This document shows positions 2,161-19,060 of a stretch of 64,000 bases of DNA, piece after piece. The notes below the pieces were generated by a model. That model had not been told where the DNA came from. It saw only the letters and a program-made list of their open reading frames with translations, and did not search any database. Source of the stretch: Candidatus Binatia bacterium (GTDB lineage: Bacteria > Desulfobacterota > Binatia > UBA9968); contig DASXUF010000017.1 of the NCBI GenBank assembly GCA_036504975.1, positions 13,561 through 77,560 on the forward strand, given 5' to 3'. Position 1 is the stretch's first letter; each line of letters opens with the position of its first letter. A program made the position numbers and the translations under genes.

Positions 2161-2946
2161 TTAGGCGGACTTCCCTTTCAACCGCTCCGCCTCTTCTAAC
2201 ACCGTGCGCTGCATGACGGCGTGGAGATCGACCGAGGTCATCGCGCAATATTCCATGCCATAAGTCGGCCGCTCTTCCGCGATGCCGTCCTGGAGAAGCC
2301 GCTGAAGAACCGTACGATTGAATTGCCCGTGGCCCATCACGCCTTCCTCGTGCTCTTCAAGGTCCGCTTCGTGGTGGGTGGAAAAATAGGTCGCCTGATC
2401 TTTCGAGAAGCCGTAGTGAGTCGTCAGCGCCTTGAACCAATCGCCCGCCCAGTGGCCGATGCGCTCCTCCGTTGTGACGGAGGAGTACCATTCGGCCGCG
2501 GTTCCTTCGTACATGACGCCGCGCATGAAATCGATCTTGGCGCGGAACTCCGAGAGCAGCGGCTGCGTGAACACTTCTTCTTCCGTAAGTCCCAGCGCCT
2601 TGGCGGTCTGCATCATGACGAGATAGTGGCCCGGCGGCTTGGGGTGGATGAACTCGTCCGCGATCTTTTCGCCGAGCGGCGCCATCAGATCCCGATGACT
2701 TTTGAAAAACGGCAGAAACCTTTGATAGGAGCAGGCGGTGAGAGTATTGATCTCGATCGTCCAGGCGCCCCAGTTTGTGAAAAAGAGCTGGATGGTCGAA
2801 AGCGGCAGCTTGCCGGTCATGAGCTGCTGCATGAACGGAGAGCGGGTCACCCGCGCTTCCCAGCGCTTCGCTACTTTGCCGTAAAGCTCGTCAACCAGCG
2901 CTTTGGCTTCCGCCGGCTTCACCTTCACGCCCGGTGTGATCTTCAT
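2161..2946 (-). CDS. TenA/PqqC-like (heme-oxygenase-fold) iron-containing redox enzyme family protein, copy 1
   Basis: 261 aa. Contains an acidic/His-rich helix (HHEADLEEHEEGVMGHG) as in the TenA_C/PqqC/CADD superfamily. Near-duplicate of ORF 11647..12426; shared blocks include LAPLGEKIADEFIHPKPPGH and EADLEEHEEGVMGHG. Confidence 0.55.
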   Translation of the reverse strand: MKITPGVKVKPAEAKALVDELYGKVAKRWEARVTRSPFMQQLMTGKLPLSTIQLFFTNWGAWTIEINTLTACSYQRFLPFFKSHRDLMAPLGEKIADEFIHPKPPGHYLVMMQTAKALGLTEEEVFTQPLLSEFRAKIDFMRGVMYEGTAAEWYSSVTTEERIGHWAGDWFKALTTHYGFSKDQATYFSTHHEADLEEHEEGVMGHGQFNRTVLQRLLQDGIAEERPTYGMEYCAMTSVDLHAVMQRTVLEEAERLKGKSA

Positions 2947-3038
2947 GCTTTCGTCTCCCGTCTCCAGCCGTCGGCTTCAACGCTAAGCGCATGGCACAAA
3001 GGCTTGGCGCTCTGCTCTTGGCTCCTTGCGCCGTCGCT

Positions 3039-3983
3039 CTATTGGCGAATTCCCAATTCCTTCTGCGCCTGGCGCAGCAGAGAAAAATCTCTTACGTCGG
3101 CCAAAGGCTTCTTCCCTTCCGTCAGCCGCTCCCATTCGAAGTCCGTGATCTCGCCGTTGCGCGCCAAGGAAACCAACAAAAGCTGATACGAGTGCGCGGC
3201 CATCTGCGGCGACTGGCTGAGCCAGCGCATCCTGATGTTGATGGTTTCCTGTTTGTTCTCGAAGATAAAATTCTGCGACTTGAGCAGGGCGCGGAGGAGC
3301 TGCTTCACCAACTGAGGCTTTTCTTGCAGCCAGCGATGGCCGACGGCGATGCCGGAAGTCGGCAGAGCGTACTTCACGTCTTCCGGACCGCCGAGAACGT
3401 TGAAGCCCTCGTCCTTGAGCAGCAGGTCGTGCGGCGAGGAAATCGAGCTGGCATCGACCATTCCCGTGCGCAGGGCCTGCGCCCGCAGCGGCGCGTCGCC
3501 CACGGCGAGGATTTGAAGCTGAGCCGGGTTGAATCCCTTGGAGCGGAGAATCTCCTCCGCCGCCGTCTGATCCGTGCCGAGCAGCGTGGAGACGGCGAGC
3601 TTTTTGCCTTTGAGCTCCTGGACGTCTTTGATGTCGCCCCGCGCGACCAAAAAGTGTTCCGACTTTTTGACCGATACCGCCACGAACTTGAGCGGCAACC
3701 CCTGGAGGACGCCGCGCAGCGTGCTGCCGAAGGTCGAGGTGAAATCCAGATCGCCGTTCATCACCGCCATCGCGCCGAGCCGCGGATTCACCTGGATCAT
3801 CTCCATGTCGAGGCCTTCCTCTTTGAAATATCCCCTCACCGCCGCGACCTGGAACGGCGTGACCGAGTTGCTGCGGCTGGAATAAGAGAGCCTGACCTTT
3901 TGCGCCTGAGCGCCCGGCGACGCGGCGGGAGTGCTCAGGGCGAAGATAAAGAGCCAAACGAGGCATAAAATTGCGGACCGCAC
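3039..3983 (-). CDS. ABC-transporter periplasmic substrate-binding protein, NMT1/THI5-like (SsuA/TauA/ThiY family), copy 1
   Basis: 314 aa with an N-terminal signal peptide (MRSAILCLVWLFIFALSTPAASPGAQA). Two-lobed SBP pattern with LKGKKLAV and LQIL..GD motifs typical of NMT1-like binders. Paralogous to 9519..10463 and 12436..13494. Confidence 0.6.
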   Translation of the reverse strand: MRSAILCLVWLFIFALSTPAASPGAQAQKVRLSYSSRSNSVTPFQVAAVRGYFKEEGLDMEMIQVNPRLGAMAVMNGDLDFTSTFGSTLRGVLQGLPLKFVAVSVKKSEHFLVARGDIKDVQELKGKKLAVSTLLGTDQTAAEEILRSKGFNPAQLQILAVGDAPLRAQALRTGMVDASSISSPHDLLLKDEGFNVLGGPEDVKYALPTSGIAVGHRWLQEKPQLVKQLLRALLKSQNFIFENKQETINIRMRWLSQSPQMAAHSYQLLLVSLARNGEITDFEWERLTEGKKPLADVRDFSLLRQAQKELGIRQ

Positions 3984-4017
3984 TGCTACTCCTATCCGAG
4001 ATGATTCCTACTTCGGT

Positions 4018-4725
4018 TTACTTGATCCTTTCCATCTCATCCGCCAGCGCGCCGCGAAACGCCCGGTCGATCTGCAGCGATTCCCGCGCGCCGTTAATCA
4101 CCGAGTCGTAACTGCCGTCGTCTACGACGTAGCGCTCGAACACGCTCCACATCATATCCGAGTGCTCGCGGTCCGCCGCCTTGTGCACATCGACCGAGGG
4201 CATGTCCTTCCAGTCGAGACCGAGCTCGGCACGCCACTTTTGGCCGATGCGATAGGAAAGCCCTCCGCCTTTGACGATCTGGTTGTTGTTTCTCCTCTCG
4301 AGGATCGACGAAGAAGCGAGCGCCGCGAGCCAATCCTGTCGCGTGGCGAGATAGACCCACGCATACTGGGCGGCGCGCGCCTGGGGAATAGGCTCGGCCC
4401 GCGCGACCTCCTCCGGGGCGATTCCCAGCAGCTCGCATTCCTTGATCTGGAGCGAATAATGATCCGTGTCGCACCGCGGGTCGCTCACGAGCTCGTCCTG
4501 CTCGTGCTGCCAGATGACCCGCTTGACGTCGAGCGGGCTCGCGCCCGACACGTAGCCCCAGCAGTCTCTCCGGTTGCTCGTGTAGAACGCCATGTGCAGC
4601 GCCAGAAAACGGGCCCGATTCAGATTATAGCGGATGGCGAGAAAGCGCATGAACTCAGGCGTCTCAAACTGCGCGTTGACCATTCGGTCCAGCTCCGCGC
4701 GTAATTGCTCCGAACGGGACATCAT
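4018..4725 (-). CDS. TenA/PqqC-like heme-oxygenase-fold protein, divergent paralog
   Basis: 235 aa, all-helical composition. Position and length match the other two HO-like genes in the cluster. Similarity to copies 1 and 2 is weak but the spacing of aromatic/acidic residues is shared. No signal peptide. Confidence 0.4.
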   Translation of the reverse strand: MMSRSEQLRAELDRMVNAQFETPEFMRFLAIRYNLNRARFLALHMAFYTSNRRDCWGYVSGASPLDVKRVIWQHEQDELVSDPRCDTDHYSLQIKECELLGIAPEEVARAEPIPQARAAQYAWVYLATRQDWLAALASSSILERRNNNQIVKGGGLSYRIGQKWRAELGLDWKDMPSVDVHKAADREHSDMMWSVFERYVVDDGSYDSVINGARESLQIDRAFRGALADEMERIK

Positions 4726-4774
4726 GCCTCCAGGCCTTGGATTTTCAAACCCGCCTCTGCCGTTGCTCCGACAT

Positions 4775-5778
4775 TCATCTCACGGCAAGAAACTCGTTGT
4801 AAAGCTTCATATACCGGCTGTAGTCCCCTTCCGGCTTAATCACGTGCAGATTATCGCTCTCGAGAAGCTGGTCGATATCCTTGGAGGGGCTCTTGACGCC
4901 GCGCCGCAATGGGATCTTCCCGGCTCTGGCCAGCGCCTGCTGCCCCTCCTGAGAGAGATAAAAATCGACCAGCAGGCGCGCGGCGGCCGGATGGAGCGGG
5001 TTTCTCACCGCCGCGACCGTGGAGATCGTTGCGAACGTGGGAGAGCTGGGAAGCCAATCGACGGGCGCCCCTTTTCGTTTCATCGCATCGACCTTGGATA
5101 CCTGCGCAAAAATGGTCAGAGGGTATTCGCCCGCGGCCAGGAGATTGACCATGTGAGTGTAGCCTTCCACCAGCCTCAACTCCTGTTGGCTCAACTTTTT
5201 GAGATAAGCCGCTCCCTGCTCCTCGCCGCGCAGAGAGATCATACCGGTAAAGGGATACGGGACTCCACGATTGACGGCCATCTGCCCTTTGAATTGCGGC
5301 TTGAGATATTCATCGTAATTTTTCGGCGCCGCCGCCTTCGAGATCATCTTAGGATTAAAGCCGGTGATGAGCAAATCGGTGGTCATGCCCGACCAGTAAC
5401 CGTCGGGATCCGAGCTTCCGCTGATGAGATTCTTGGTTTCCGCGGAGCGGTGGGCGGAGAGAACCCCTTGCTGCTTGAAGTAGAGCATCGTCTCCAGGCT
5501 GTTTCCCAAAACGTCCGCCTGCACCCTTCCCGCCCGATGCTCTTGCATGACCCGCGCCGCCTGTCGGGCCGAGCTCAGGTAAACGTGACGGATGTTGAGA
5601 AAGGGATATTTTTCCTTTGCCGCTTTGCTGAACGCTTCGAAGTCCACCACCGTCATGGTCGTGTAGAGAATGACCTCGCCTTCCTTCTTCGCCTGCTCGA
5701 CGTTGTCCGTCGCTTGCGCGAAACAGAAAGCGGGCCAGAGAAGGAGCGCCCAAAAAAGGAGATTATGTTTTGGCTTCA
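4775..5778 (-). CDS. extracellular solute-binding protein, family-1 (Fe3+/thiamine-type) ABC substrate-binding protein
   Basis: Start re-assigned to the internal ATG (MKPKHNLLFWALLLWPAFCFAQA), which gives a signal peptide and a GGAGGAGAAG Shine-Dalgarno sequence on the minus strand. Paralog of 21043..22125; shared blocks include AKKEGEV..YTT and HRAGRVQADV versus ARAGKYNVDV. Confidence 0.55.
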
Positions 5779-5810
5779 TGTCTTCTCCTCCAGGATAAAC
5801 CGGACGAACG

Positions 5811-7253
5811 TCAGACGCCGAACGCCAGGCTCTTGATGACGACCGGCACGTAATCCTCTCCCGGCACGATCGCTCCGACGTCGATGAAGTCCATCTCGCC
5901 GAGCGAGATTTCATCCACGCACGGCATGCTCAGTTCTTTTCCCAGCGCTTCTCCGATGACCCGGCCGATGTTCTGCTCGAAGACGAGCATCTGCGGCCGC
6001 TCGGATGCAGGCACCTCCGCCAAAGCGCGGCGTATTCCCGTCGCCAGCTCCTGTGCCGCGCCGTAGCCCAAGAAAGGCGGGGAGATAAAAACCAGCGCGA
6101 ACGGCGAGCCCTTGACCTCCGGATCCATGGCGGCGATCGTCTTTCGAATCGCCTTTGCGGCTTTATCCGCGATCGGCGCATCCCAACTCACCTGAACCGT
6201 CGAGACTCTTAAGTTGTGCAGCGGCAGTGTTTTCGGATTCGGAATGAAGATCGTCTCGCCGCTCATCTGCATCGAATACTGCGACGCGCCGATGACCGTG
6301 GCGCGGATGCCTTCGCTCGAATCGAGAACCGCGTAGCGCCGCTTCCGTGCCTGTTCCCGCACCTCTTTCCCGAACAATACGCCGAGATCCCCGAAGCTCC
6401 CGGCCTCGCGGCCGTAAATATATTCGGCAACGCCGCCGGAAAAAAGAACCCCGTCGATTTGAGGCGGCAGGGCAAGCGCAGGCATGATCATGATCTCGCT
6501 CCACGGCGGCTCGCCGCCGGCGATCAAATCGAAAAGGATTTGCGCCATCTTCGCGGCGACTCCCCTGAGCGTCGGCGCATCGATCGGGTCGCCCAGGGCC
6601 AGCTGATAACCGGCATGGCGCAAAAATTTCTTACCGGACTGCTCCAGGCGTCTGATCCGGCCGCTCTTGTCGAAGGCGATCAACCGCGCGCCGATGTTGA
6701 GCGCCGTGACGCCGACGACTCTTCCCTTGTCGATCAGGCTCACCTTCGTGGTGCCGCCGCCGACGTCGATGTTGAGAAGCGTCGTTGCCTCTTCGCGGCT
6801 GCGGCCGACGGCGCCGGAGCCGTGCGCCGCGAGCAGCGCCTCCAGTCTGGGACCGGCGGTCGCGCACACGAACTGACCCGCCTGGGCGGAAAAAAGCTCG
6901 GCGATTTTCTGCGCGTTCTCCCGCCGCGCGGCTTCGCCGGTGATGATGACCGCGCCGGTGTCGATTTGCTCGCGGTTAAGACCCGCGGCGCGGAAGCTGC
7001 CGTCGATCAATTCGGCCAGCGGCCCGGCTTCGATGTTCCAGTCCCCCGTGAACGGCGTCAGCAGAACGGGAGAGCGGGCGATCAGCTTTCGCTCTAAAAT
7101 TTCGGGACGGCGCCGGTGCGCCGACGGATAGCCGATCGCGAGCTGCGAGAACATCAGATGAGAAGTCGAAGAGCCGATATCGATCCCGACGCTGACGAGA
7201 TGCGTATGCGGCACCGCGCTGCTCTCGTGGTCGTGTCCATGGTGATTATCCAT
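5811..7253 (-). CDS. EutA/GlmL-like ASKHA-fold ATPase (putative enzyme reactivase/chaperone)
   Basis: 480 aa. Two actin-like ATPase phosphate loops (VGIDIGSSTSH near the N-terminus, VDVGGGTTK mid-protein). Size and organisation resemble ethanolamine-ammonia-lyase reactivase EutA and glutamate-mutase GlmL. Confidence 0.45.
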   Translation of the reverse strand: MDNHHGHDHESSAVPHTHLVSVGIDIGSSTSHLMFSQLAIGYPSAHRRRPEILERKLIARSPVLLTPFTGDWNIEAGPLAELIDGSFRAAGLNREQIDTGAVIITGEAARRENAQKIAELFSAQAGQFVCATAGPRLEALLAAHGSGAVGRSREEATTLLNIDVGGGTTKVSLIDKGRVVGVTALNIGARLIAFDKSGRIRRLEQSGKKFLRHAGYQLALGDPIDAPTLRGVAAKMAQILFDLIAGGEPPWSEIMIMPALALPPQIDGVLFSGGVAEYIYGREAGSFGDLGVLFGKEVREQARKRRYAVLDSSEGIRATVIGASQYSMQMSGETIFIPNPKTLPLHNLRVSTVQVSWDAPIADKAAKAIRKTIAAMDPEVKGSPFALVFISPPFLGYGAAQELATGIRRALAEVPASERPQMLVFEQNIGRVIGEALGKELSMPCVDEISLGEMDFIDVGAIVPGEDYVPVVIKSLAFGV

Positions 7254-7457
7254 AACAAAATTTTGAATCTTGCCCCTCGTCAGTGTTAAAAAAATCCGTT
7301 CTTCAAGGCGGTCAGAAAGGTTTCAGCTGCGCGGCGCGCGAAGGTCCGCGAGCGGAGGCGTACTTTTTTTCAGTACGTTGACGCCATAGCCCGCCACTGG
7401 CGGGCGTTCCGCTAACCGGCCGAGCGCGACCATCTTAACGCTATGGCAGATGAGCCT

Positions 7458-8555
7458 TTATGGCCGCCTTGCTAGTGTAGTGTAGTAATCCGCTGGTTCC
7501 CCCTGCTGCGTATGCACGTACCCCGTCGACTCCATGGCGACGCGGCCGGAGTGGACGAGAAATCGCGCCGTCTCCTTGCCGGTGTTGAAGTGCTGGTGCC
7601 AGGCGAAGACCGGAATCACCAAGGTGTCGCCTTTCTTCCAATCGTATCTCTGGTCCTCGATGATACTGTAGCCTTCGCCGGAGAGCACGTATTCCGTTTC
7701 TTCGTAAATGTGCCGGTGCGCGCCCGAGCGCTTGCCAGCGGGAATTTCCGCGAGCAGAGTGCCCAAGATCTTCACGTGAAAGCCGAGCTTCGGATCGACT
7801 GCGTACGCGACCCGTCCCATCGGCGTCAAGCCGAAGCGCAATGTGCTTCCCTTGACCAGCACTTTCCCCGCTCTCCTGCGTTTTTCTTCGTGCTCAGCGT
7901 AAGTCAGTTGCTCGTAATAAATCTCCGCGGGACTGGGCTCGCCGCCGTTGCTCGTCTCGGCCGGCTTCCACTTGGCCGAGTCGAACTTGACTCGCGCTTC
8001 CGCCGGGATCTCCGCGCCTCCCGGCACTAGCGTCTTCATCGCCTCCTCGCCTTTCTGCGCGAAGATCCAGTACTCGGGATATTTTTCTTCTTCGTAGATC
8101 GCGATGCCCATCGCCATCGACAGCGGGCCCGTCGTCGCCGCCAGATAGACCAGCTCGTCGCCGCTCTCGTTGTGGTGCCGATGCCAGGCAAAGACCGGAA
8201 CACAAATTAAATCGCCGGCTTGCCAAGGATACTTGATCCCATCAATGACGCTGTAGCCATGCCCTTTGAGAATATAGATGACGGCCTCGACGGTATGGCG
8301 GTGGCCCAATTGCCAGCCGCTGAATTCCATCTCCTCGCCGGCGGTGCGGAGATTGATCCAGAAGCGGAAGGTCCGCTGGTTGAAGCCGAGGCGCGGATCG
8401 ACGATGTAGACGTGGTTGTGGTCTTTGAGCTGCGCGTCGATCTCCTCGGCCCTGACGTGGACCGGCGATTTTTTTCTTCGCTCCAGCTCCTCTTTGCCGA
8501 AGCGGATATGCTCCATCCGCATCCGCAAGTGGTCTTCTTTTCGCGCCATCACCAT
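7458..8555 (-). CDS. bicupin (two cupin barrels), gentisate-1,2-dioxygenase-like ring-cleavage dioxygenase family, copy 1
   Basis: 365 aa. Two cupin cores with His-containing motifs (GHRHTVEAVIYILKGHGYSVIDGI in the N-terminal barrel, SGAHRH...YVLSGEGYSIIED in the C-terminal barrel). Strong paralogy to 10555..11637; shared blocks include ICVPVFAWHRH, YPEYWIFAQK and ARFLVH. Confidence 0.6.
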   Translation of the reverse strand: MVMARKEDHLRMRMEHIRFGKEELERRKKSPVHVRAEEIDAQLKDHNHVYIVDPRLGFNQRTFRFWINLRTAGEEMEFSGWQLGHRHTVEAVIYILKGHGYSVIDGIKYPWQAGDLICVPVFAWHRHHNESGDELVYLAATTGPLSMAMGIAIYEEEKYPEYWIFAQKGEEAMKTLVPGGAEIPAEARVKFDSAKWKPAETSNGGEPSPAEIYYEQLTYAEHEEKRRRAGKVLVKGSTLRFGLTPMGRVAYAVDPKLGFHVKILGTLLAEIPAGKRSGAHRHIYEETEYVLSGEGYSIIEDQRYDWKKGDTLVIPVFAWHQHFNTGKETARFLVHSGRVAMESTGYVHTQQGEPADYYTTLARRP

Positions 8556-8571
8556 GACGAAATCCCCCTTC

Positions 8572-9522
8572 TCAAGCGATGCGTAAAAATAGTGTCTCGG
8601 AATCGATTTTTGCGCTCGCGATCCCCTGCTCGACGCCGTAGCGAATCAGCGTCTTGATGACTTTTTCGTTCGCCGCCATGCCGTAGCGCCACGGATCGCC
8701 GCCGAACATCTCGCGCTCTTCTTCCCACAAATCCCTGATCCACACGAAATTGGAAAACGTCGGGTCTTCGTCGTCCGCCAGCGCCAGCCGTTTCGCTTCG
8801 TCCCAGATTTTATAAAGTCTGCGCGCCAGCAAAGGGTGGTCGCGCGCAACCTGCTCCCGGATGACGATCGCGTGGTTGATCGGGAAAATTCCCGTGCGCC
8901 GGAAATAATCCATTTCCAGTTCCTTGGTATAAGAGAAGAGCCGGCGAATTCCCCTGGCCGCGATCACGTCGGGAGTAATCAACGCGTCCACCTCTCCCTT
9001 GAGAAGGCGCGCGCGCAGGTCGCGCTTTCCGGAGAACGATTCGATGACGGCGCCGGGCGGCGGCGTGAAATCGACCGCTTCTTTTCTGATAACTTTCCAG
9101 GCCATGTCCCGGGTTTTGAGTCCGTATTCGTCTCCCAGCAAGCCGCGCGCCCAGAGACCGCAGGTGTTGAGATACGACGGCACGCCGACGGCTTTACCCC
9201 TGAGGTCGGCGGCCTCCCGGATGGGCGAATCCTCGCGCAGGTATATAAAGGAGTAGCGGAATCGGCGGTTGGGGAAAACCGGAATAGCCACGAGCGGAGC
9301 GCCGTTGCTCTTGAGCGCCAGGTAGAGGGCCAGAGAAAGCTCCGAGGCGTCGAAGTCGCCGGCGAGAAAACGCCGATGGCGCTCGCCGTCGCTCTCGAAC
9401 GGAACGACCTTGAGCTTGAGGTCGCCCGTATCCACCCTCCCGTCCCATAAAGGCCGGGCGCGGACGTGGTAGCCGGTGGCCAGGACGAGGGGGCGATTTT
9501 TTTTCTTTACCGGACGGCTCAT
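8572..9522 (-). CDS. cytoplasmic PhnD/SsuA/NMT1-fold protein (4,5-dihydroxyphthalate-decarboxylase-like family)
   Basis: 316 aa with no signal peptide, but SBP-like two-lobed pattern (LRGKAVGVPS, EVDALITPDV). Proteins of this fold lacking signal peptides are annotated as aromatic-acid decarboxylases. Confidence 0.4.
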   Translation of the reverse strand: MSRPVKKKNRPLVLATGYHVRARPLWDGRVDTGDLKLKVVPFESDGERHRRFLAGDFDASELSLALYLALKSNGAPLVAIPVFPNRRFRYSFIYLREDSPIREAADLRGKAVGVPSYLNTCGLWARGLLGDEYGLKTRDMAWKVIRKEAVDFTPPPGAVIESFSGKRDLRARLLKGEVDALITPDVIAARGIRRLFSYTKELEMDYFRRTGIFPINHAIVIREQVARDHPLLARRLYKIWDEAKRLALADDEDPTFSNFVWIRDLWEEEREMFGGDPWRYGMAANEKVIKTLIRYGVEQGIASAKIDSETLFLRIA

Positions 9523-10463
9523 TTCAAACCTCGCGCGAACGAATAATCGAAGATCTCGCTCATCGGCAGCGCCTTTTTTCCCAGCTCGCCGCGGCTCTGC
9601 GCCCGCTCCAAAAATATATTAACGCGCTCTTCCGGCATCACCAGATCGTCAACCATGACGCCGGCGATGTCATCATACGCTTGCGCAGCGACATCCGGGG
9701 CCACCTGCCAGCTCTGTTGAATGTAGGCGACCGTGCCCTGCCGATCCTGGCGCACGGTTTTCAGCGTCTCGCGCAAAGCGAGAAGGAAGCTCCGGATGCG
9801 ATCCGGCTGTTTCTGGATTTTCTGCCGGCTCGTCACGACGCCGAGCCACGGCGCCTCGATCAGATCGCGGCTGTTCATGAGGACCTTATAGCCCTGGCGC
9901 GCCATGAGTCCGGTGAACGGCGGGCTCAGGACCGCGGCCTCGACCGAACCCTGCTGGAGCGCCGTCAGACTCACCGTCGTGCTCCCGGTCTGGATAAAGG
10001 TGATTTTTTTCTCATCGACGCCGCTGTTCTCCAGCATCAACGCGCCGTAGCGGTGGCTCTCCGAGCCGATGCGCGAGACCGCGACTTTCTTTCCTTCCAG
10101 ATCTTTCGGCCGCACGACGTGCGCCGGAGCCAGGAGCGAGAGCAGCGGCGCGCGATAGAGAACCGCCACGGTTTTCAGCGGCATGCCGTTGCTGATCCCG
10201 AGGATCGCCGGTCCGATCGCCGGATTGAAATCCAATTCACCGGAGACCAGACCGATCGTCTGGAGATTGCTCTGCATCGAAATAATTTCCAGGTCGATGC
10301 CGTGCTTCTCGAAGATCTTTTTATCTTTGCCGTAGTAGAACGGCAGAAACACCACGCTCCGGACGGAGACGCCCAGGCGCATCTTCTCCAATGCAGCAGC
10401 GGGAGAGGCTAAGACAATCGCCCCTAAGAGGACAGCGACAGATAATCGGCTTCGCGTAAACAT
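9519..10463 (-). CDS. ABC-transporter substrate-binding protein, NMT1/THI5-like, copy 2
   Basis: Start moved to the ATG giving MFTRSRLSVAVLLGAIVLASPAAA, a signal peptide. The upstream in-frame extension in the ORF track is a translated REP-like repeat. NMT1-like pattern present (LEGKKVAVS, GSVEAAVL). Confidence 0.6.
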   Translation of the reverse strand: MFTRSRLSVAVLLGAIVLASPAAALEKMRLGVSVRSVVFLPFYYGKDKKIFEKHGIDLEIISMQSNLQTIGLVSGELDFNPAIGPAILGISNGMPLKTVAVLYRAPLLSLLAPAHVVRPKDLEGKKVAVSRIGSESHRYGALMLENSGVDEKKITFIQTGSTTVSLTALQQGSVEAAVLSPPFTGLMARQGYKVLMNSRDLIEAPWLGVVTSRQKIQKQPDRIRSFLLALRETLKTVRQDRQGTVAYIQQSWQVAPDVAAQAYDDIAGVMVDDLVMPEERVNIFLERAQSRGELGKKALPMSEIFDYSFARGLK

Positions 10464-10554
10464 AGGCGTTGATCCTATTTCAGATCCTTCACTTCGTTCA
10501 GGATGACGGAGTATGCTCCGAAATGTCATTCTGAGCGAAGCGAAGAATCTCTCC

Positions 10555-11637
10555 TTAAAAGGATGCAAGTTCACCCTGTTGCGTTATCATCAACCCGATA
10601 TTTTCCATTGCGGGTCTACCCGTATGCACTAAAAATCTCGCCGGCTCTTTGCCGGTGTTGAAGTGTTGGTGCCAGGAAAACAGCGGGATCGCCAGGGTGT
10701 CGCCCTGTTTCCATTCGTAGCGTTTGTCCTCGATGATGCTGTAGCCTTCCCCGGCAAGCACGTGATTCACTTCTTCGTAGAGATGGCGATGAGCGCCGGA
10801 GCGTTCCCCCGGCTCGATCTCCGCCACCAAGGTCGACATGACCTTTACATAAAAGCCGAGCTTTGGGTCAACCACTGGCGCGACGCGGCCCATCGGAGTC
10901 TTCTCGAACTTGAGATCGCCGCCCTTCACGAGGACCCGGCTCTTTCTGCGCTCGCGCTCTTCGTTCTCGCCGAAGTTCAACTGATCGAAATAAAGTTTTG
11001 CCGCGGTCGAATTTTCGAACTGCGCCGGATCCAGTCCCTCGGGCGCCCCCCTCCGGGCTTCGGGAATATCCACCACGCCGGGAAGCAAGGTTTTCTCCGC
11101 GCCGTTTTCTTTCTGGGCGAAGATCCAGTATTCGGGATAGCGCTCGTCTTCGTAAATCGCGAGACCGATGCCCATCGACAGCGGCCCGGTCGTCGCCGCG
11201 ACGTAAACCATGTCTTCGTTCGAAAGATTCACGTGCCGGTGCCAGGCGAAGACGGGAACGCAAATAAAGTCGCCCGCCTCCCAGTCGTATTGGATGCCGT
11301 CGATGATGCTGTAGCCGTGGCCTTTGAGCACGTGGATCACCGCCTCGACCGTGTGACGGTGGCCCATGGTCTTCCATTGATTGTTTTCTTCGCCGGGCGG
11401 AAAGCCGTTGATCCAGAAGCGCAGGATGCGGGCGTTGAAGCCGAGCCGAGGATCAACCAGCACCACCCAGTTGTGGCCCATGAACTCGCGGTCGATTTTT
11501 TCTCTCGGGACGTAAACTGGCGACGTTTCCCGGCGCTTCAGCTCCTCCTTCGCGAACTTCACCATCTCCATGTACATGCGGAGATAGTCGTCGTAACCGG
11601 GCGGTTTTCCGGTAGATTTGTCCTTCTCTTCACTCAT
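10555..11637 (-). CDS. bicupin dioxygenase-like protein, copy 2
   Basis: 360 aa, paralog of 7458..8555 with the same two cupin cores (GHRHTVEAVIHVLKGHGYSIIDGI; SGAHRHLYEEVNHVLAGEGYSIIEDKRYEW). Confidence 0.6.
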   Translation of the reverse strand: MSEEKDKSTGKPPGYDDYLRMYMEMVKFAKEELKRRETSPVYVPREKIDREFMGHNWVVLVDPRLGFNARILRFWINGFPPGEENNQWKTMGHRHTVEAVIHVLKGHGYSIIDGIQYDWEAGDFICVPVFAWHRHVNLSNEDMVYVAATTGPLSMGIGLAIYEDERYPEYWIFAQKENGAEKTLLPGVVDIPEARRGAPEGLDPAQFENSTAAKLYFDQLNFGENEERERRKSRVLVKGGDLKFEKTPMGRVAPVVDPKLGFYVKVMSTLVAEIEPGERSGAHRHLYEEVNHVLAGEGYSIIEDKRYEWKQGDTLAIPLFSWHQHFNTGKEPARFLVHTGRPAMENIGLMITQQGELASF

Positions 11638-11646
11638 GACCGCAGC

Positions 11647-12426
11647 TCAAGCCCCTGGTTCAGCCGCCTCCAAGCCGGCGCGCAGCATCAGGCCATGTAG
11701 CTCCACCGACGTCATCGCGCAGTATTCGACGCCGTAAGTCGGCCGCTCGGACGCCATGCCCGATTCCAACAAACGCTGCAGCGCCAGGCGATTGAAGCTG
11801 CCGTGGCCCATAACGCCTTCCTCGTGCTCTTCGAGGTCGGCCTCGTAGTGCGTGGCGAAATAAATCGCCTGATCGCGCGTAAAACCGTAATGCTTAGTCA
11901 GCGCCTTGTAGCATTCGGCCGACCAGTGGCCGATCTGCTCTTCCGTAGTGATCGAGCCGTACCATTCGGCGGCGGTTCCCTCCGAGAGAACGCCGCGCAT
12001 GAAATCGATCTTGCCGCGAAACCCGGAGAGCAGCGGCTGAGAGAAGATCTCTTCCTCAGTGAGGCCGAAAGCCTTCGCCGTCTGTAACATGACAAGGAAA
12101 TGGCCGGGCGGCTTGGGATGAATGAACTCGTCGGCGATCTTCTCGCCGAGCGGCGCCATTAGCTCGCGATGCGTCTTAAAGAACGGCAGGTGGCGCTGAT
12201 AAGAACAGGCGGCGAGCGTGTTGATCTCGATCGTGTAAGCGCCCCAGTTGCGAAAGAAGCTCCGCCACGCTTCGAGCGGCAGTTTCCCTTCCTTGAGAAG
12301 CGTCATGAACGGCGTGCGGTTGACCCGTTCTTCCCACCGGTCGGCAACTTTGCGGTACAGCTCATCGACGACCGCCTTCGCCTTCTCGGATGAAAGTTTC
12401 TCGCCGGGTTGAATTCTCAGGCTCAC
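11647..12426 (-). CDS. TenA/PqqC-like heme-oxygenase-fold protein, copy 2
   Basis: 259 aa, about 65-70% identical to 2161..2946 by eye across the whole length (NWGAYTIEINTLAACSYQR, HYEADLEEHEEGVMGHG). Confidence 0.55.
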   Translation of the reverse strand: MSLRIQPGEKLSSEKAKAVVDELYRKVADRWEERVNRTPFMTLLKEGKLPLEAWRSFFRNWGAYTIEINTLAACSYQRHLPFFKTHRELMAPLGEKIADEFIHPKPPGHFLVMLQTAKAFGLTEEEIFSQPLLSGFRGKIDFMRGVLSEGTAAEWYGSITTEEQIGHWSAECYKALTKHYGFTRDQAIYFATHYEADLEEHEEGVMGHGSFNRLALQRLLESGMASERPTYGVEYCAMTSVELHGLMLRAGLEAAEPGA

Positions 12427-12435
12427 GGAAGTCTC

Positions 12436-13494
12436 CTATCGTTTCTTTTGCAAGATCTCGTCCCGCGCTTTCTGCGCGAACGACCAGTCGCGTAGCTGGC
12501 TCATGGGAACGTCGCGCTCGGTTAGTCCGGAAAACCTTGCCGCGTCGACGGCGCTTTCGAGCACGCCGTCCTCAGCGATGCCGTAGTCCGCCAGCGACTC
12601 GCTGACGATCGGATACACCGCGTCGGCCACGCTCCGGTCCAAGCTCAGCCAACTCATCATGAACTTCACCGTCTCTTCGCGCTCGCTTTTCACCCACTGG
12701 ATGCCGCGGGCGATCGCCTTCATGACGCGGACGACCTCCTGCGGATTTTCTTGCAGCCGCTTCTCGTGCGCGCCCAGGCCGCCTTGCGGCAGATCCATTA
12801 CTTTGCCGAGCCAGAGCAGGGACCGATAGCCCATTTTTTCCGCCTGGAGGTTGAACGGCGCCACGAGCACCGTGGCTTGTATCGTCCCGCCCTGCAGCGC
12901 CGCGAGCCTGCCGGCGCTGCCGCCGACCTGGATGATCGTCACGTCCTTCTTGGGATCGAGGCCGCCCTTCCGCAGCGCGATGCGGATCGCGTAGTCGCTC
13001 GCCGCGCCGAAAGAGCTGGTGCCGATGACCTTGCCCTTTAGATCCTGGATGGTGCGGACCGACGGATGCGACACCATCACGTAAGAAGTTTTTTTGATCA
13101 TCACGCCGACGACCTTGATCGGCAGTCCTCTAACCGCCGCCGTGACCAGAGACGGCAGCGCGGTGGAGTAGTCCAACTGCCCCGTCAGCAGTGCCTTGAT
13201 GATGATGTCGGCGCTCCGGATCGTGATCATCTCCGGGTCGAGCCCTTCGTCTTTGAAATATCCGCGCTTGGCCGCGATCTCACTGGGGAGCGTCGTGATG
13301 CTTGGCGTCGTCGAGCCGATGCGGATGCGTTTGAGCGACTGCGCGTGCAGCGGAGAAGCGACAAGAAGCGCGAGCGCGAGAATTATCGGCAGGACGAAAA
13401 CAGCCCCCTCACCTTTATCCTCTCCCCCGATGGGGGAGAGGAAGGAATAGGGGAAGTTGAGAAATCGCCGCTGCATGCGTCCCATCCTTATCAT
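12436..13494 (-). CDS. ABC-transporter substrate-binding protein, NMT1/THI5-like, copy 3
   Basis: 352 aa. Hydrophobic signal-like segment (VFVLPIILALALLVASPLHAQS) preceded by an N-extension that overlaps a REP-like palindrome, so the true start is uncertain. Contains LKGKVIGTS and ALQGGTIQATVL motifs. Confidence 0.5.
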   Translation of the reverse strand: MIRMGRMQRRFLNFPYSFLSPIGGEDKGEGAVFVLPIILALALLVASPLHAQSLKRIRIGSTTPSITTLPSEIAAKRGYFKDEGLDPEMITIRSADIIIKALLTGQLDYSTALPSLVTAAVRGLPIKVVGVMIKKTSYVMVSHPSVRTIQDLKGKVIGTSSFGAASDYAIRIALRKGGLDPKKDVTIIQVGGSAGRLAALQGGTIQATVLVAPFNLQAEKMGYRSLLWLGKVMDLPQGGLGAHEKRLQENPQEVVRVMKAIARGIQWVKSEREETVKFMMSWLSLDRSVADAVYPIVSESLADYGIAEDGVLESAVDAARFSGLTERDVPMSQLRDWSFAQKARDEILQKKR

Positions 13495-13498
13495 ACTC

Positions 13499-13993
13499 TT
13501 AACCCTCTCCCTTCGAGGGAGAGGGAATGGGTGAGGGTTCCGCCGACTCGCCCTGCTGCGTCACCGCGTAGCCGAGGTTTTCCATGGCGATGCGATTGGT
13601 ATGGACGAGGAACCGCGCCGGCTCGTTCCCGGTATTAAAGTGCTGGTACCAGGCGAAGATCGGTATCGACAGCGCGTCGCCCGCCTTCCAATCGTAGCGC
13701 CGGTCTTCGATGATCGAGGTGCCGCGGCCCGCGACCACATAATTGATCTCTTCGTAAACGTGCCGGTGCGCGCCGGATTTTTCGCCGGGCAAAATCTCGG
13801 CGATCAAGCTGGAAACCGTCTTGACGTAACAGCCGCGCTTGGGCTCGACCGCCAGCGCCACTCTCCCCATCGGCGTTTTCTCGAAAACCAAATCTTTTCC
13901 TCGGTGTGATCGTCTCGGGTGATGTTCACCACGAGTATTTTCCGATCCTTTCGGGTTCAAGCAGTTTGTACCCTGGAAGTGGAAACGGGGCAA
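13499..13993 (-). pseudogene. truncated bicupin paralog retaining only the C-terminal cupin barrel (copy 3 remnant)
   Basis: Aligns with the C-terminal halves of both bicupins (FEKTPMGRVA, SGAHRHVYEE, ARFLVHT). No N-terminal barrel is present. Only about 60 nt separate it from the divergent coxM-like gene, so the 5' half appears to have been deleted. Confidence 0.4.
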
Positions 13994-14056: not shown

Positions 14057-14968
14057 ATGAGACGACCTGAACCGTTCGAGATCTTCCAGCCCGCTTCGCT
14101 TCGAGAAGCCAGCGCGCTCGTCAAAGACAAAGGCCAGGGCGGGCGTTTTCTCGCCGGCGGCACCGACCTCGTCATCGCCGTCAAAGAAAAAAGCTTCTCG
14201 CCGAATTACGTCGTGGATCTCAAGCGCATCCCCGGCCTTTCCGGCATCCGCGAAGAGAGCGACGGAAGCGTGGCGATCGGCGCGCTGACGACGATGCGCG
14301 AGGTCGAAACCTCGCCGGTGGTTCTCAAAAAATATCCTTTTCTCGCGCAGAGCGCGGCAGAAGTGGGCTCAATCCAAATTCGCAATCGCGCCACCATCGG
14401 CGGCAACATGGCGAACGCGACGCCGTCGGCCGACGTCGCTCCCGCCCTTCTTGTCCTCGACGCCACGGCAAAGATCGCCGGCCTGAACGGCGAGCGGACG
14501 ATCGAGCTGGAACAATTTTTCCGCGGCCCAGGCCAGACCGTAATGGCTGCCGAAGAAATTCTTACTTCCATAATCATTCCTCCGGTGAGCCCCTCGTTGG
14601 TCGGTGAGTACATCAAGTTCTCGCCGCGCGAAATGATGGACCTCGCCTACGTCGGTGTCGCGGTCGCGCTGGTCCTGAACGGCGGCCAAAAACGCTGCGC
14701 GAAAGCCCGCATCTCTCTCTGCGCGGTCTCGCCCACGCCGATGCGGGCGCGTCGCGCGGAGGCGCTGCTGGAAAATCAAATCATGACGGAAGAGCTGGCG
14801 GAGCGAGCGGGCGCGGAGGCGGCCGCGGAATCGAAACCGATCAGCGACGTGCGCTCGTCGGCCGACTACCGCAGAGAAATGGTCCGCGTGAACACCAAGC
14901 GCGCGCTGCTCAACGCCGTCGCCGGCAGAGCCGAGTCGTGGATGGGGCGAAGGGATAGAAGGTACTAA
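14057..14968 (+). CDS. xanthine-dehydrogenase-family Mo-hydroxylase, FAD-binding medium subunit (CoxM-like)
   Basis: 303 aa with the FAD-binding molybdopterin-dehydrogenase motif (FLAGGTDLVIAVKE...ATIGGNMANATPSAD). Confidence 0.8.
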   Translation: MRRPEPFEIFQPASLREASALVKDKGQGGRFLAGGTDLVIAVKEKSFSPNYVVDLKRIPGLSGIREESDGSVAIGALTTMREVETSPVVLKKYPFLAQSAAEVGSIQIRNRATIGGNMANATPSADVAPALLVLDATAKIAGLNGERTIELEQFFRGPGQTVMAAEEILTSIIIPPVSPSLVGEYIKFSPREMMDLAYVGVAVALVLNGGQKRCAKARISLCAVSPTPMRARRAEALLENQIMTEELAERAGAEAAAESKPISDVRSSADYRREMVRVNTKRALLNAVAGRAESWMGRRDRRY

Positions 14969-14973
14969 GGCGT

Positions 14974-15459
14974 ATGAAAAAAAAGATTCGGATCACGTTG
15001 AACGGCAGGAAAACCGACCTTGAAGTCCCGACGCACCGTCTTCTGCTTGATTTGCTCCGCGACGAGATCGGCCTCACGGGAACCAAAGAAGGCTGCGGCA
15101 CCGGCGACTGCGGCGCTTGCACGGTCTTGCTGAACGGGAAGCCGGTGAACTCCTGCCTCATCTTCTCAGGCGAGCTCGACGGCGAAGACATCGTCACGAT
15201 CGAGGGCTTGAAGATCGGCCCGGAGTTGCATCCGGTCCAGCAGGCGTTCATCCAGGACGGCGGCGTTCAGTGCGGCTACTGCACCTCGGGCATGCTCATG
15301 ATGTCCAAGGCGCTGCTCGACGAGAATCCCGATCCCAGCGAGGAAGACATCCGCTTCGCGATCTCCGGCAATCTCTGCCGCTGCACCGGCTACGCGAAGA
15401 TCGTCAAAGCGGTCCAGGATGCGGGACGGGAATTGCGCGCGAAGCGCGGGGGTGCGTAG
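14974..15459 (+). CDS. (2Fe-2S)-binding small subunit of Mo-hydroxylase (CoxS-like)
   Basis: 161 aa. Plant-type ferredoxin cluster (CGTGDCGACTV) plus second cluster (QCGYCTSGM, LCRCTGY). Starts 5 nt after the medium-subunit stop. Confidence 0.85.
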   Translation: MKKKIRITLNGRKTDLEVPTHRLLLDLLRDEIGLTGTKEGCGTGDCGACTVLLNGKPVNSCLIFSGELDGEDIVTIEGLKIGPELHPVQQAFIQDGGVQCGYCTSGMLMMSKALLDENPDPSEEDIRFAISGNLCRCTGYAKIVKAVQDAGRELRAKRGGA

Positions 15460-15477
15460 TCGAGTCGATATACTTTT

Positions 15478-15592
15478 TTACTTTGCGACCTTGGCGTCTT
15501 GGCGCGACCCTCACCCCTTCCCTCTCCCTCAGGGAGAGGGTTGGGTGAGGGAATCTCGCGCAAAGCCGCGAAGGGCGCCAACAAGAAGGATG
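15478..15592. repeat. composite REP-like element: outer inverted arms (ctttgcgaccttggcgtcttggcgcga / tcgcgcaaagccgcgaagggcgccaa) enclosing a nested GC hairpin (ccctcacccc-ttc-cctctccc-tca-gggagaggg-ttg-ggtgaggg)
   Basis: Perfect nested palindromes read directly from the sequence. The same outer-arm family occurs at 1..75 and 50578..50680. The inner CCCTCTCCC/GGGAGAGGG hairpin family also occurs at 13430..13460, 13500..13545 and 31430..31465. Confidence 0.6.
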
Positions 15593-15614
15593 ACTAATTA
15601 CGGAGTCGATTGAT

Positions 15615-18438: not shown

Positions 18439-19059
18439 TCAGCAGATTCGCTCGATGTCTTCTCCTATACGACGCACCGCTGCGACCAGCGCGTCGTTCA
18501 AGAGGTTCGCGACTTCGACGTTTCCATTGACCCAGTTTTGCCGTATGGCGCTGGCTCGATAATCGCGCTCCGTGGTCGGGTCCTGGCGGCCGGAAAACTT
18601 CACTTTCAGTGCAACGACCCCTTCGAACTGAGTCAAGAAGGTCCGGGCGTAAACGCGCCGGATGCTGACTTCGGTTATCAGGTCGCTGCCCGAGGGAACG
18701 TCCTCTTGACCCGAGCTACGAATCGGGTAGCCGGCTTTGCCGAGTTCGCGGAAGCCGCGCGCAACCCACTCGACGACGCTATGGCCGATGATGGGTTGGC
18801 CGGAGGCGACTCCCAAAGTCTCGCGATTCGTACGGTCGTCGGTTACGGACACAATCACAATGCGGCATGACTGCTTGTTTGCATGCTCATCGGCCGAGCC
18901 GGACGCGGAAGGGTCGCGTATCAAATTGACAAAGATCGGCTCGGTGTTAGCGCAGGCGGAGAATAGCGCGAGGGATGCCGCAAAAATCCCGATCCGTGCG
19001 ACATTACCCAGGCGCTGAAGTGGGTACGGGCAGCGCTCCTGCTTGTGCACTGAAACCAT
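18439..19059 (-). CDS. hypothetical lipoprotein
   Basis: Lipobox LALFSAC precedes a predicted mature domain with no recognisable catalytic motifs. Start chosen at the internal Met (MVSVHK); the start is uncertain. Confidence 0.3.
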   Translation of the reverse strand: MVSVHKQERCPYPLQRLGNVARIGIFAASLALFSACANTEPIFVNLIRDPSASGSADEHANKQSCRIVIVSVTDDRTNRETLGVASGQPIIGHSVVEWVARGFRELGKAGYPIRSSGQEDVPSGSDLITEVSIRRVYARTFLTQFEGVVALKVKFSGRQDPTTERDYRASAIRQNWVNGNVEVANLLNDALVAAVRRIGEDIERIC

Positions 19060-19060
19060 C

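Follow-up and report, generated by a model that had tools for sequence, protein, structure and literature searches.

We analysed a 64,000-nucleotide stretch (the window) of contig DASXUF010000017.1 from a Candidatus Binatia bacterium, in which positions 2161-13993 hold a minus-strand gene cluster encoding haem-oxygenase (HO)-like proteins, two-domain cupins (bicupins), solute-binding proteins (SBPs), a EutA-family ATPase and a decarboxylase homolog. The cluster consists of 12 co-directional open reading frames (ORFs), with short gaps or small overlaps between them. Reading down the minus strand, these are the cupin remnant, SBP3, HO2, bicupin2, SBP2, the PhnD-fold protein, bicupin1, the EutA-like ATPase, the Fe-type SBP, the divergent HO-like protein (HOdiv), SBP1 and HO1 (Table 1); bicupin2 starts 9 bp downstream of HO2. 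A preliminary description of this DNA, made from the sequence alone, had listed the same 12 genes at the same coordinates and in the same sequence on the minus strand, and its domain assignments are upheld by Pfam and NCBIfam. The single minus-strand cluster that it proposed is indeed operon-like, with secreted binding proteins beside cytoplasmic oxygenases. A promoter and terminator scan of the cluster gave counts no higher than in shuffled sequence. A metagenome contig of the Joint Genome Institute (JGI; L063, the L numbers being our labels for the compared loci) is 98.8% identical to the window across 18.4 kb, with identical gene order.

Table 1. Genes of the cluster, in their order down the minus strand, followed by other features of the window
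Feature	Position in the window	Strand	Basis or remark
Truncated third bicupin (cupin remnant)	13499..13993	-	Cupin_2 match
SBP3, NMT1/SsuA-type	12436..13485 (ORF to 13494, start uncertain)	-	Pfam NMT1 91 bits, NMT1_2 83 bits
HO2, haem-oxygenase-fold, predicted di-metal oxidase	11647..12426	-	Sequence, family and fold matches
Bicupin2, gentisate-1,2-dioxygenase family	10555..11637	-	Two Cupin_2 domains
SBP2, NMT1/SsuA-type	9519..10463 (ORF to 10574)	-	Pfam NMT1 80 bits
4,5-Dihydroxyphthalate decarboxylase homolog (PhnD-fold protein)	8572..9522	-	PDB 9jp7 match
Bicupin1, gentisate-dioxygenase family	7458..8555	-	Directly upstream of the EutA-like gene
EutA-family ASKHA ATPase, His-rich N-terminal tail	5811..7253	-	Pfam EutA 391 bits
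Fe3+/PotD/PhnS-type SBP, secreted	4775..5779 (ORF to 5914)	-	SBP_bac_6 match
HOdiv, divergent haem-oxygenase-fold, predicted di-metal oxidase	4018..4725	-	Pfam Haem_oxygenas_2 40.7 bits
SBP1, NMT1/SsuA-type	3039..3983	-	SsuA_fam 72 bits
HO1, paralog of HO2	2161..2946	-	73% identical to HO2
Mo hydroxylase, three subunits, divergent	14057..17936	+	Pfam domains; variable accessory, outside the core
Mo hydroxylase, FAD subunit	14057-14968	+	
Mo hydroxylase, 2Fe-2S subunit	14974-15459	+	
Mo hydroxylase, Mo subunit	15615-17936	+	
TcuA (tricarballylate dehydrogenase)	254-1765		Above equivalog cut-off
Two overlapping ORFs (228 and 296 aa)	18439-19125, 19061-19951	-	No Pfam or NCBIfam match
pyrE	20144-20812		Reaches equivalog cut-off
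TctC-type binding protein	25143-26186		
PrpF	28453-29580		

By their two-cupin architecture and 3-His motif, the bicupins are assigned to the gentisate-dioxygenase family. They match the gentisate 1,2-dioxygenases of PDB entries 3bu7, 2d40 and 2phd, and 3bu7 is the best solved relative of bicupin2. When aligned to 3bu7, the metal triads read HRH...WHRH in the N-terminal domain and HRH...WHQH in the C-terminal domain. The placement of these proteins among ring-cleaving dioxygenases, as proposed earlier, is therefore borne out by the gentisate-dioxygenase match and by the HxH...H pattern in both domains. Their NCBIfam scores are 60 bits against a cut-off of 442 for gentisate dioxygenase (TIGR02272) and 107 against 650 for 5-aminosalicylate dioxygenase. 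As these lie far under the equivalog cut-offs, the bicupins are relatives, not orthologs, of either enzyme. In related genomes, bicupins are associated with FAH-family hydrolases and flavin monooxygenases, and the adjacency of bicupin1 followed by the EutA-like gene is repeated in L005, L014, L017, L031, L033 and L040. On plasmids, bicupin relatives were found at 25-41% identity only. A cupin-DHDPS pair on a Gluconobacter plasmid was considered as a clue from gene context and proved uninformative.

The third bicupin is truncated. L005 has a full-length third bicupin next to its Mo hydroxylase; compared with this, the remnant has lost ~650 bp, comprising the N-terminal cupin domain, and the deletion fuses the original 5' region to the C-terminal cupin domain; L063 carries the same deletion. 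The remnant lies on a long branch of the bicupin tree, and its omega (ratio of non-synonymous to synonymous divergence) against the L005 ortholog is 0.10. As omega is still this low, either the truncation is recent or the single-cupin product is still in use. A palindromic hairpin, CCTCTCCC-N3-7-GGGAGAGG, was observed in three copies (13419-13441, 13504-13524 and 15521-15539; zero expected by chance), two of which flank the remnant/SBP3 junction and the third of which lies between the 2Fe-2S and Mo subunit genes of the Mo hydroxylase. These copies look like repetitive extragenic palindromic (REP)-type intergenic elements.

HO1, HO2 and HOdiv are predicted to be haem-oxygenase-fold di-metal oxidases (HDOs) from their fold and their conserved set of His and carboxylate residues. 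The best PDB sequence match of HO2 is CADD (CT610, p-aminobenzoate synthase; E 5e-5). CADD is also the best Foldseek match (TM 0.72/0.86) of the AlphaFold2 model of HO2 (pLDDT 87), which shows the seven-helix haem-oxygenase fold, and it is followed by PqqC as the second best, TenA, FlcD, UndA and BesC. The CADD ligands H88, E142, H174 and D178 align with H109, E162, H193 and D197 of HO1 and HO2, the sixth position being E200/H201, and the residues at the ligand positions are invariant or nearly so in the family alignment. The conserved candidate ligands of HO2 are E67, D99/E100, H109, E162, H193, D197 and H201; in HOdiv, H74/E75/D77/E78, D88/H89, E143 and H181-x3-D185-x2-H188 are conserved among 39 sequences.

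The family scores separate the three proteins. For Haem_oxygenas_2 (Pfam gathering cut-off 28.9 bits), HOdiv passes with 40.7 bits, and HO1 (26.1 bits) and HO2 (26.2 bits) fall just below. For TENA_THI-4 (cut-off 22 bits), the scores are 18.2, 20.3 and 23.3 bits for HO1, HO2 and HOdiv, respectively. These values bear on the argument of the preliminary description that TenA-like and THI5/ThiY-like proteins tie the cluster to aminopyrimidine metabolism. The fold matches do place the helical proteins within the TenA/PqqC/CADD fold superfamily, as had been expected, and the weak TENA_THI-4 matches and the TenA structures among the fold matches speak for the TenA argument. They are, however, not TenA-like: HO1 and HO2 remain under the TENA_THI-4 cut-off, HOdiv exceeds it but has the better match to Haem_oxygenas_2, CADD is clearly the better match in both sequence and fold, and the full di-metal ligand set is invariant. 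This invariant His/Glu/Asp set argues for a metal site, not for a metal-free aminopyrimidine pocket, and an identity of HO1 and HO2 as TenA/thiaminase II was rejected on these grounds.

Two other assignments were rejected as well. A CADD-type self-sacrificing p-aminobenzoate synthase is not indicated, as the Lys152 of CADD aligns with C172 of HO2 in a column not conserved as Lys; the score for the CADD-type family TIGR04305 is also only 25 bits against a cut-off of 200. A PqqC function in pyrroloquinoline quinone (PQQ) synthesis was discarded, since neither the window nor the annotated related loci showed any pqq genes and, by fold, PqqC comes only second; 'PQQ biosynthesis protein C', as used by JGI, is an automatic name.

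The HO-like family is small, with 254 representatives at E <= 0.001 among 1.84 billion clustered proteins. In a scan of one genome per species, relatives of HO2 were found in 58 loci, nearly all from Candidatus Binatia or 'Deltaproteobacteria' bins. A tblastn search against 72,556 plasmids gave no HO-like homologs, so annotated context from cultured organisms could not be borrowed. In several relatives (L033, L038, L040 and L042), a bicupin that is missing from the window immediately precedes HO1. Fused double-HO proteins of ~510 aa also occur in metagenomes (L071, 68-1597; L075, 1711-3270), each directly followed by a bicupin gene. In the L071 protein the second domain is without the His/Asp metal motifs, suggesting that one half is catalytic and the other structural.

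All four SBPs have signal-peptide-like N-termini (SBP3, VFVLPIILALALLVASPLHA; Fe-type SBP, MKPKHNLLFWALLLWPAFCFAQA; SBP1, MRSAILCLVWLFIFALSTPAASPGAQA), and such N-termini are absent from the HO-like, bicupin, PhnD-fold and EutA-like proteins. Those of SBP1-3 are hydrophobic and end in A-x-A-like sites. The frame of SBP1 is that given in Table 1; an overlapping ORF (2983-3966) is without any family match, and the 314-aa ortholog in L063 has NMT1 and NMT1_2 domains. The SsuA_fam score of SBP3 is under the cut-off, and the gene call in L063 is 349 aa long. The likely start of SBP2 is the ATG at 10463 (MFTRSRLSVAVLLGAIVLASPAAA), as the 5' part of its ORF up to 10574 is a translated inverted repeat. 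This 25-bp inverted repeat, GATTCTTCGCTTCGCTCAGAATGAC ... GTCATCCTGAACGAAGTGAAGGATC, lies at 10483-10545 between bicupin2 and SBP2, and its translation, 'SLRMT...PERSEGS', is a false 5' extension of the SBP2 ORF.

On these matches, SBP1-3 are best described as generic NMT1/SsuA-type binding proteins. All their NCBIfam scores are under the cut-offs, and their best solved relatives, 3qsl and 4nmy, are uncharacterised proteins that they match better than THI5, ThiY or SsuA. SBP1 does weakly match THI5 (E 5e-6) and the formylaminopyrimidine (FAMP)-binding protein 3ix1 (E 4e-5); because the SBPs carry signal peptides, they are not THI5-like enzymes. On the whole, the SBP matches do not support the aminopyrimidine argument. 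The Fe-type SBP has, besides its SBP_bac_6 match, a weak match to phnS2, and in some loci a matching PotA-type ATP-binding cassette (ABC) ATPase and permease are encoded downstream of its relatives. The window itself encodes no ABC permease or ATPase. Membrane partners of the ABC type or the tripartite ATP-independent periplasmic (TRAP) type for the NMT1-type SBPs were found neither in the window nor among the gene families shared by related loci.

The protein that the preliminary description had called a PhnD-fold protein was placed correctly as a gene, but its relation to a decarboxylase had been missed. It has a periplasmic-binding-protein fold without a signal peptide and matches PDB 9jp7, a 4,5-dihydroxyphthalate decarboxylase, over residues 12-312 (E 3e-44); it is thus a cytoplasmic homolog of that enzyme. 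Decarboxylase homologs encoded on plasmids adjoin Mo hydroxylases or phthalate-type reductases. The closest solved relative of the Mo hydroxylase large subunit of the window is the alpha subunit of 4-hydroxybenzoyl-CoA reductase (433 bits), followed by a nicotine-pathway dehydrogenase (312 bits), and the subunit is under every equivalog cut-off.

The EutA-like ATPase matches the Pfam EutA domain over profile positions 2-474 of 475, and both ASKHA phosphate motifs are kept (DIGSSTSH and DVGGGTTK). It misses all equivalog cut-offs, the best NCBIfam EutA score being 328 bits against 598, and ethanolamine lyase genes (eutB/eutC) were seen neither in the window nor in the annotated related loci. 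Its N-terminus (~7200-7253), MDNHHGHDHESSAVPHTH, is His-rich and precedes the first ASKHA motif. Such a tail is present in 27/27 Binatia orthologs of the fetched loci, with 5-9 His in ~19-30 residues; in one Binatia ortholog, an over-extended ORF, it is 43 residues long. The genuine EutA of the Klebsiella eutH-eutA-eutB operon starts VNTRQLLSVGIDIG, without a tail, and the alphaproteobacterial cupin-linked EutA-like homologs are also without it. His-rich tails are typical of metallochaperones, for example HypB, UreE and SlyD. The di-iron cofactors of characterised HDOs are unstable (PMC7848743). Taken together, the tail and this instability suggest a role for the ATPase in loading or restoring the metal of the oxygenases encoded next to it, for which it may act as a metallochaperone.

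We observed that the gene copies in the cluster are old. HO1 and HO2 are 73% identical in amino-acid sequence with a synonymous divergence (dS) of 1.33, and bicupin1 and bicupin2 are 62% identical with a saturated dS of 2.40. The remnant is 65% identical to the C-terminal half of bicupin2, and BLASTP at E 1e-3 links HOdiv to neither HO1 nor HO2. For comparison, the orthologs in the closest other genome are 75-92% identical to the genes here, with dS of 0.7-1.1. In neighbour-joining trees HO1 and HO2 fall into two different clades, both containing orthologs from many genomes (>10 other genomes in the case of HO1), and bicupin1, bicupin2 and the remnant likewise have clades of their own with orthologs from many genomes. 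All enzymes are under strong purifying selection (omega 0.04-0.19). Self-BLASTN of the DNA gave within-gene matches only (HO1/HO2 76%, bicupin1/bicupin2 68%, bicupin1/remnant 71%); no multi-gene repeat block and no similarity across any gene boundary were detected.

These data do not agree with the model of three recent tandem iterations of one module that the preliminary description had put forward. The order of genes in the units differs, and DNA similarity is confined to the coding regions. The HO1/HO2 and bicupin pairs, taken there as recent paralogs, have the dS values and separate ortholog clades described above, so the proposed alignment and dating of all paralogs places the duplications far back. 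The peptides quoted as a sign of recency are indeed present (LMAPLGEKIADEFIHPKPPGH common to HO1 and HO2; ICVPVFAWHRH and YPEYWIFAQK common to both bicupins), but they are invariant in the 19-member family alignment and include predicted metal-ligand residues; they therefore reflect constraint and are uninformative on recency. Only the SBPs had been regarded as older paralogs, consistent with pairwise identities of 26-30% among SBP1, SBP2 and SBP3. From the dS values, the trees and the invariance of the peptides, the copies are ancient and strongly constrained, neither recent nor amplified; a recent amplification is ruled out by the dS values, the trees and the absence of multi-gene DNA repeats. 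The operon is thus assembled from ancient paralogs that have since diverged.

Linkage of these genes is conserved in related genomes. Among 30 related loci of >=15 kb containing an HO gene, this gene is accompanied by a bicupin in 26, an NMT1-type SBP in 25, a EutA-like gene in 23, HOdiv in 22, the decarboxylase homolog in 20 and a Mo hydroxylase large subunit in 9, the last being counted as a CoxL-like large subunit of any type at E <= 1e-6. Such linkage is far above chance. The earlier expectation that the genes would be linked in related genomes, with variable module or copy number, was thus confirmed in these 30 loci. The divergent Mo hydroxylase, which it had counted as part of the system, is present on the plus strand as described but lies outside the conserved core.

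In the commonest arrangement, we found an amine oxidase, HO, a DHDPS-type aldolase, 1-2 SBPs, the decarboxylase homolog, the EutA-like gene, HOdiv, a second HOdiv and a more distant bicupin. The variant of the window, which adds the Mo hydroxylase and 2-3 closer bicupins, recurs in L005/L033, L014, L019, L031, L040 and L042. The closest other contig, JBGPTS010000030.1 (L005/L033), carries five bicupins and four HO-like genes. It has a DHDPS-like aldolase gene and a bicupin between SBP1 and HO1 (absent from 2946-3039 of the window) and a FAH-family hydrolase after HO1, also absent from the window; in addition, HOdiv and the Fe-type SBP stand in the opposite order there. From the neighbour-joining trees and gene order, HO clades pair consistently with particular bicupin clades. 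Other HO contexts include a FAD monooxygenase, a class V aminotransferase, a FAH-family hydrolase, an isochorismatase-family gene, a thiamine pyrophosphate (TPP) enzyme and an IclR regulator, and related Binatia loci also carry a UbiD gene. All NCBIfam scores of the neighbours (amine oxidase, DHDPS-like aldolase, aminotransferase and TPP enzyme) are below the equivalog cut-offs, and therefore no pathway could be named. As a speculation, the order bicupin-HO-aminotransferase-FAH of L001-type loci is reminiscent of the homogentisate pathway, the HO-like protein standing where 4-hydroxyphenylpyruvate dioxygenase would be.

On plasmids, the EutA-like protein has its best matches (40% identity) in Sinorhizobium and Phyllobacterium, and in both genera a cupin gene comes immediately before the EutA-like gene. 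The Sinorhizobium cluster includes, ~2 kb away, a decarboxylase homolog; its other members are a LigXa-type Rieske oxygenase, a Rieske ferredoxin, a class II aldolase-family gene, an Amidohydro_2 gene and IclR regulators. Found in the cluster of Phyllobacterium are a Rieske ring-hydroxylating oxygenase, a ferredoxin, class II aldolase-family genes and an IclR regulator. NCBIfam scores of the EutA-adjacent cupin and of a 639-aa Sinorhizobium protein are below equivalog cut-offs. As HO-like genes are absent from these plasmids, the conserved partners of the EutA subfamily are the cupin and the decarboxylase. On the Phyllobacterium zundukense plasmid (L069, 8672-13054), a HoxN-type Ni/Co permease and NikR adjoin the cupin-EutA pair, a hint that nickel or cobalt is the metal of the cupin serviced by this EutA subfamily.

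The reading best supported by these data is an operon for aromatic-acid catabolism, in an uncharacterised variant that combines enzymes in an unusual way. In its more specific form, to which we give an even chance, this would be a Binatia-specific operon for the catabolism of hydroxylated, carboxylated aromatic or N-heteroaromatic acids. The four secreted SBPs, three of the NMT1/SsuA type and one of the Fe/PotD type, would capture substrates in the periplasm. The cytoplasmic 4,5-dihydroxyphthalate-decarboxylase-like enzyme would take off a ring carboxyl group, and the gentisate-dioxygenase-type bicupins, with 3-His metal sites in both cupin domains, would open the ring. Each bicupin lineage would work with a partner CADD-like HDO, which may carry out an O2-dependent step just before or after ring cleavage. 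The His-tailed EutA-family ATPase, having no B12 enzyme nearby, probably loads or restores the metal centres of the oxygenases, and the Mo hydroxylase could provide an optional first hydroxylation step in some variants. The uptake-plus-degradation system of the preliminary description thus survives as uptake with ring-cleaving catabolism; its recency, tandem structure and thiamine-pyrimidine logic, and the term 'amplified' with them, do not, the copies being ancient.

Several observations weigh against the catabolic reading. No maleylpyruvate isomerase or hydrolase genes are found in the window, and no permease or ATPase for the NMT1-type SBPs is found in the window or among the gene families shared by related loci. 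No protein of the cluster reaches the equivalog cut-off of a characterised enzyme, and HO1 and HO2 score below the Pfam cut-off for Haem_oxygenas_2. Characterised HDOs act mainly in biosynthesis rather than in catabolism (PMC13108848). The amine oxidase and DHDPS-type aldolase neighbours in the commonest cluster variant would also fit an amino-acid-derived substrate.

Among the alternatives, a substrate that is specifically an N-heteroaromatic acid, for example a pyridine mono- or dicarboxylate, is possible though unlikely. It would be hydroxylated beside the ring nitrogen by the Mo enzyme and decarboxylated, and the resulting dihydroxypyridine carboxylate would be cleaved by a bicupin. The xanthine dehydrogenase (XDH)-family Mo hydroxylase divergent from the cluster fits such a route, as do the Mo hydroxylases of several types that recur beside HO-bicupin pairs and the Roseomonas decarboxylase homolog located directly after a Mo hydroxylase. 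An isochorismatase-family gene and an allantoinase/dihydroorotase-like cyclic amidohydrolase occur in relatives, and in the window pyrE, pyrR and an allantoate-amidohydrolase-like gene are near the cluster. However, the Mo enzyme occurs in only 9/30 loci, and its closest solved relative, 4-hydroxybenzoyl-CoA reductase, acts on a carbocyclic acid thioester. The pyrE gene, which reaches the equivalog cut-off, may be a plain housekeeping gene, and the window has no deformylase or maleamate-type amidase.

The pairing of HDO and cupin could also be read as biosynthetic, because in SznF this pairing is known to be catalytic: the HDO would N-oxygenate an amine or guanidine and the cupin would rearrange the product, for example with formation of an N-N bond, to give a small reactive metabolite. 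The adjacent, co-diversifying HO-like and bicupin genes, and the amine oxidase gene beside the HO gene in the commonest variant, are in line with this. We nevertheless consider it improbable, because SznF appears neither in the PDB sequence matches of the HO-like proteins and bicupins nor in the top 50 fold matches, and because non-ribosomal peptide synthetase, polyketide synthase, tailoring and export genes were seen neither in the window nor in the annotated related loci. Moreover, the bicupins match ring-cleaving gentisate dioxygenases instead, and the cluster has four secreted uptake-type binding proteins and a decarboxylase.

It is very improbable that the cluster serves metal handling and not catabolism, with the ATPase, the Fe-type SBP, the cupins and the HO proteins buffering or trafficking iron, nickel or cobalt. 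This would account for the His-rich tail of the EutA-like protein, for the Fe3+/PotD-type SBP whose relatives are encoded with a matching ABC transporter, and for the HoxN permease and NikR next to the cupin-EutA pair in Phyllobacterium. It would not account for the decarboxylase homolog and the FAH hydrolase, monooxygenase and aldolase neighbours, which are catabolic enzymes, for the dioxygenase-type architecture kept by the cupins, or for the strong purifying selection on all enzymes. Finally, a three-fold amplified system of TenA and ThiY/THI5-type proteins for uptake and breakdown of thiamine-derived aminopyrimidines (hydroxymethylpyrimidine (HMP) or FAMP) is hardly credible given the family scores and SBP matches above, the ancient copies, the lack of thiamine genes in the cluster, and the consistent partners of the HO genes, which are bicupins, the dihydroxyphthalate-decarboxylase homolog and the EutA-like ATPase.

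Elsewhere in the window, the two overlapping ORFs that match no family are situated between the Mo hydroxylase and pyrE, and L063 has gene calls for them too. Around pyrE, up to 25132, are a second Fe/PhnS-type SBP, a LysR regulator, the allantoate-amidohydrolase-like M20 protein and pyrR; a PyrE-like gene is found near the Mo hydroxylase in two other loci (L029 and L046). TcuA, the TctC-type binding protein and PrpF, which surround the cluster, may be parts of a tricarboxylate utilisation system. Further along, besides the latter two, the window holds a chemoreceptor and a Tad pilus locus.

Binatia, which are abundant in soil and sediment, are uncultured bacteria, and little is known of the carbon sources that they use. 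The cluster points to a catabolic route built from enzyme families not described together: a rare CADD-like di-metal protein, a bicupin, a decarboxylase homolog and a EutA-family ATPase. Literature searches on the HDO-cupin-EutA combination, EutA-like proteins, aromatic catabolism in Binatia and 6-hydroxyquinolinate decarboxylase yielded nothing directly relevant. Its secreted SBPs offer a direct experimental handle on the substrate through ligand screening. A bolder proposal, which we regard as quite unlikely, is that the HO-like HDO, the bicupin and the His-tailed EutA-family ATPase together make up a multi-component oxygenase system not described before, in which the ATPase would be a dedicated, ATP-driven metal insertase or reactivase for labile non-haem metal centres and the HDO would act in bulk catabolism of aromatic or heteroaromatic acids in soil. 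If this is true, the insertase or reactivase would be the first role of the EutA family outside B12 enzymes, and an HDO family known from natural-product biosynthesis would serve bulk catabolism in Binatia. An ATPase that services metal sites would also answer the known cofactor instability of HDOs and broaden the known roles of reactivases.

The likeness of the cluster to characterised systems is partial in each case. The gentisate, salicylate and 5-aminosalicylate 1,2-dioxygenases (3bu7, 2d40 and 2phd) have in common with the bicupins of the window a two-cupin architecture of ~360 aa and the HxH...H triad, but identity is only ~25-30% and the NCBIfam scores are 60-107 bits against 442-650. 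A constant pairing with HO-fold proteins and a EutA-like ATPase was not found for known ring-cleaving bicupins in the sources searched. The decarboxylase homolog resembles 4,5-dihydroxyphthalate decarboxylase (9jp7) over its full length, with the same binding-protein fold and likewise no signal peptide; unlike in the known pathway of phthalate catabolism, the phthalate dioxygenase and dehydrogenase genes are absent here.

CADD, UndA, BesC, SznF and FlcD have the seven-helix fold in common with the HO-like proteins. CADD, the best match, shows ~16% identity, its amine-donor Lys152 being replaced by Cys or other residues, and compared with CADD and the other HDOs the gene context here looks catabolic rather than biosynthetic. 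SznF, in which an HDO is fused to a cupin for N-nitrosourea synthesis, is a precedent for an HDO and a cupin acting successively on one substrate; in the window the two are separate genes, and the cupin is a gentisate-dioxygenase-type bicupin. EutA, the reactivating factor of the B12-dependent ethanolamine ammonia-lyase, has the full-length Pfam domain and the ASKHA motifs in common with the ATPase of the window. The latter differs in having a His-rich tail and no eutB/eutC nearby, and the neighbours of its subfamily, in two phyla, are cupins and the decarboxylase homolog.

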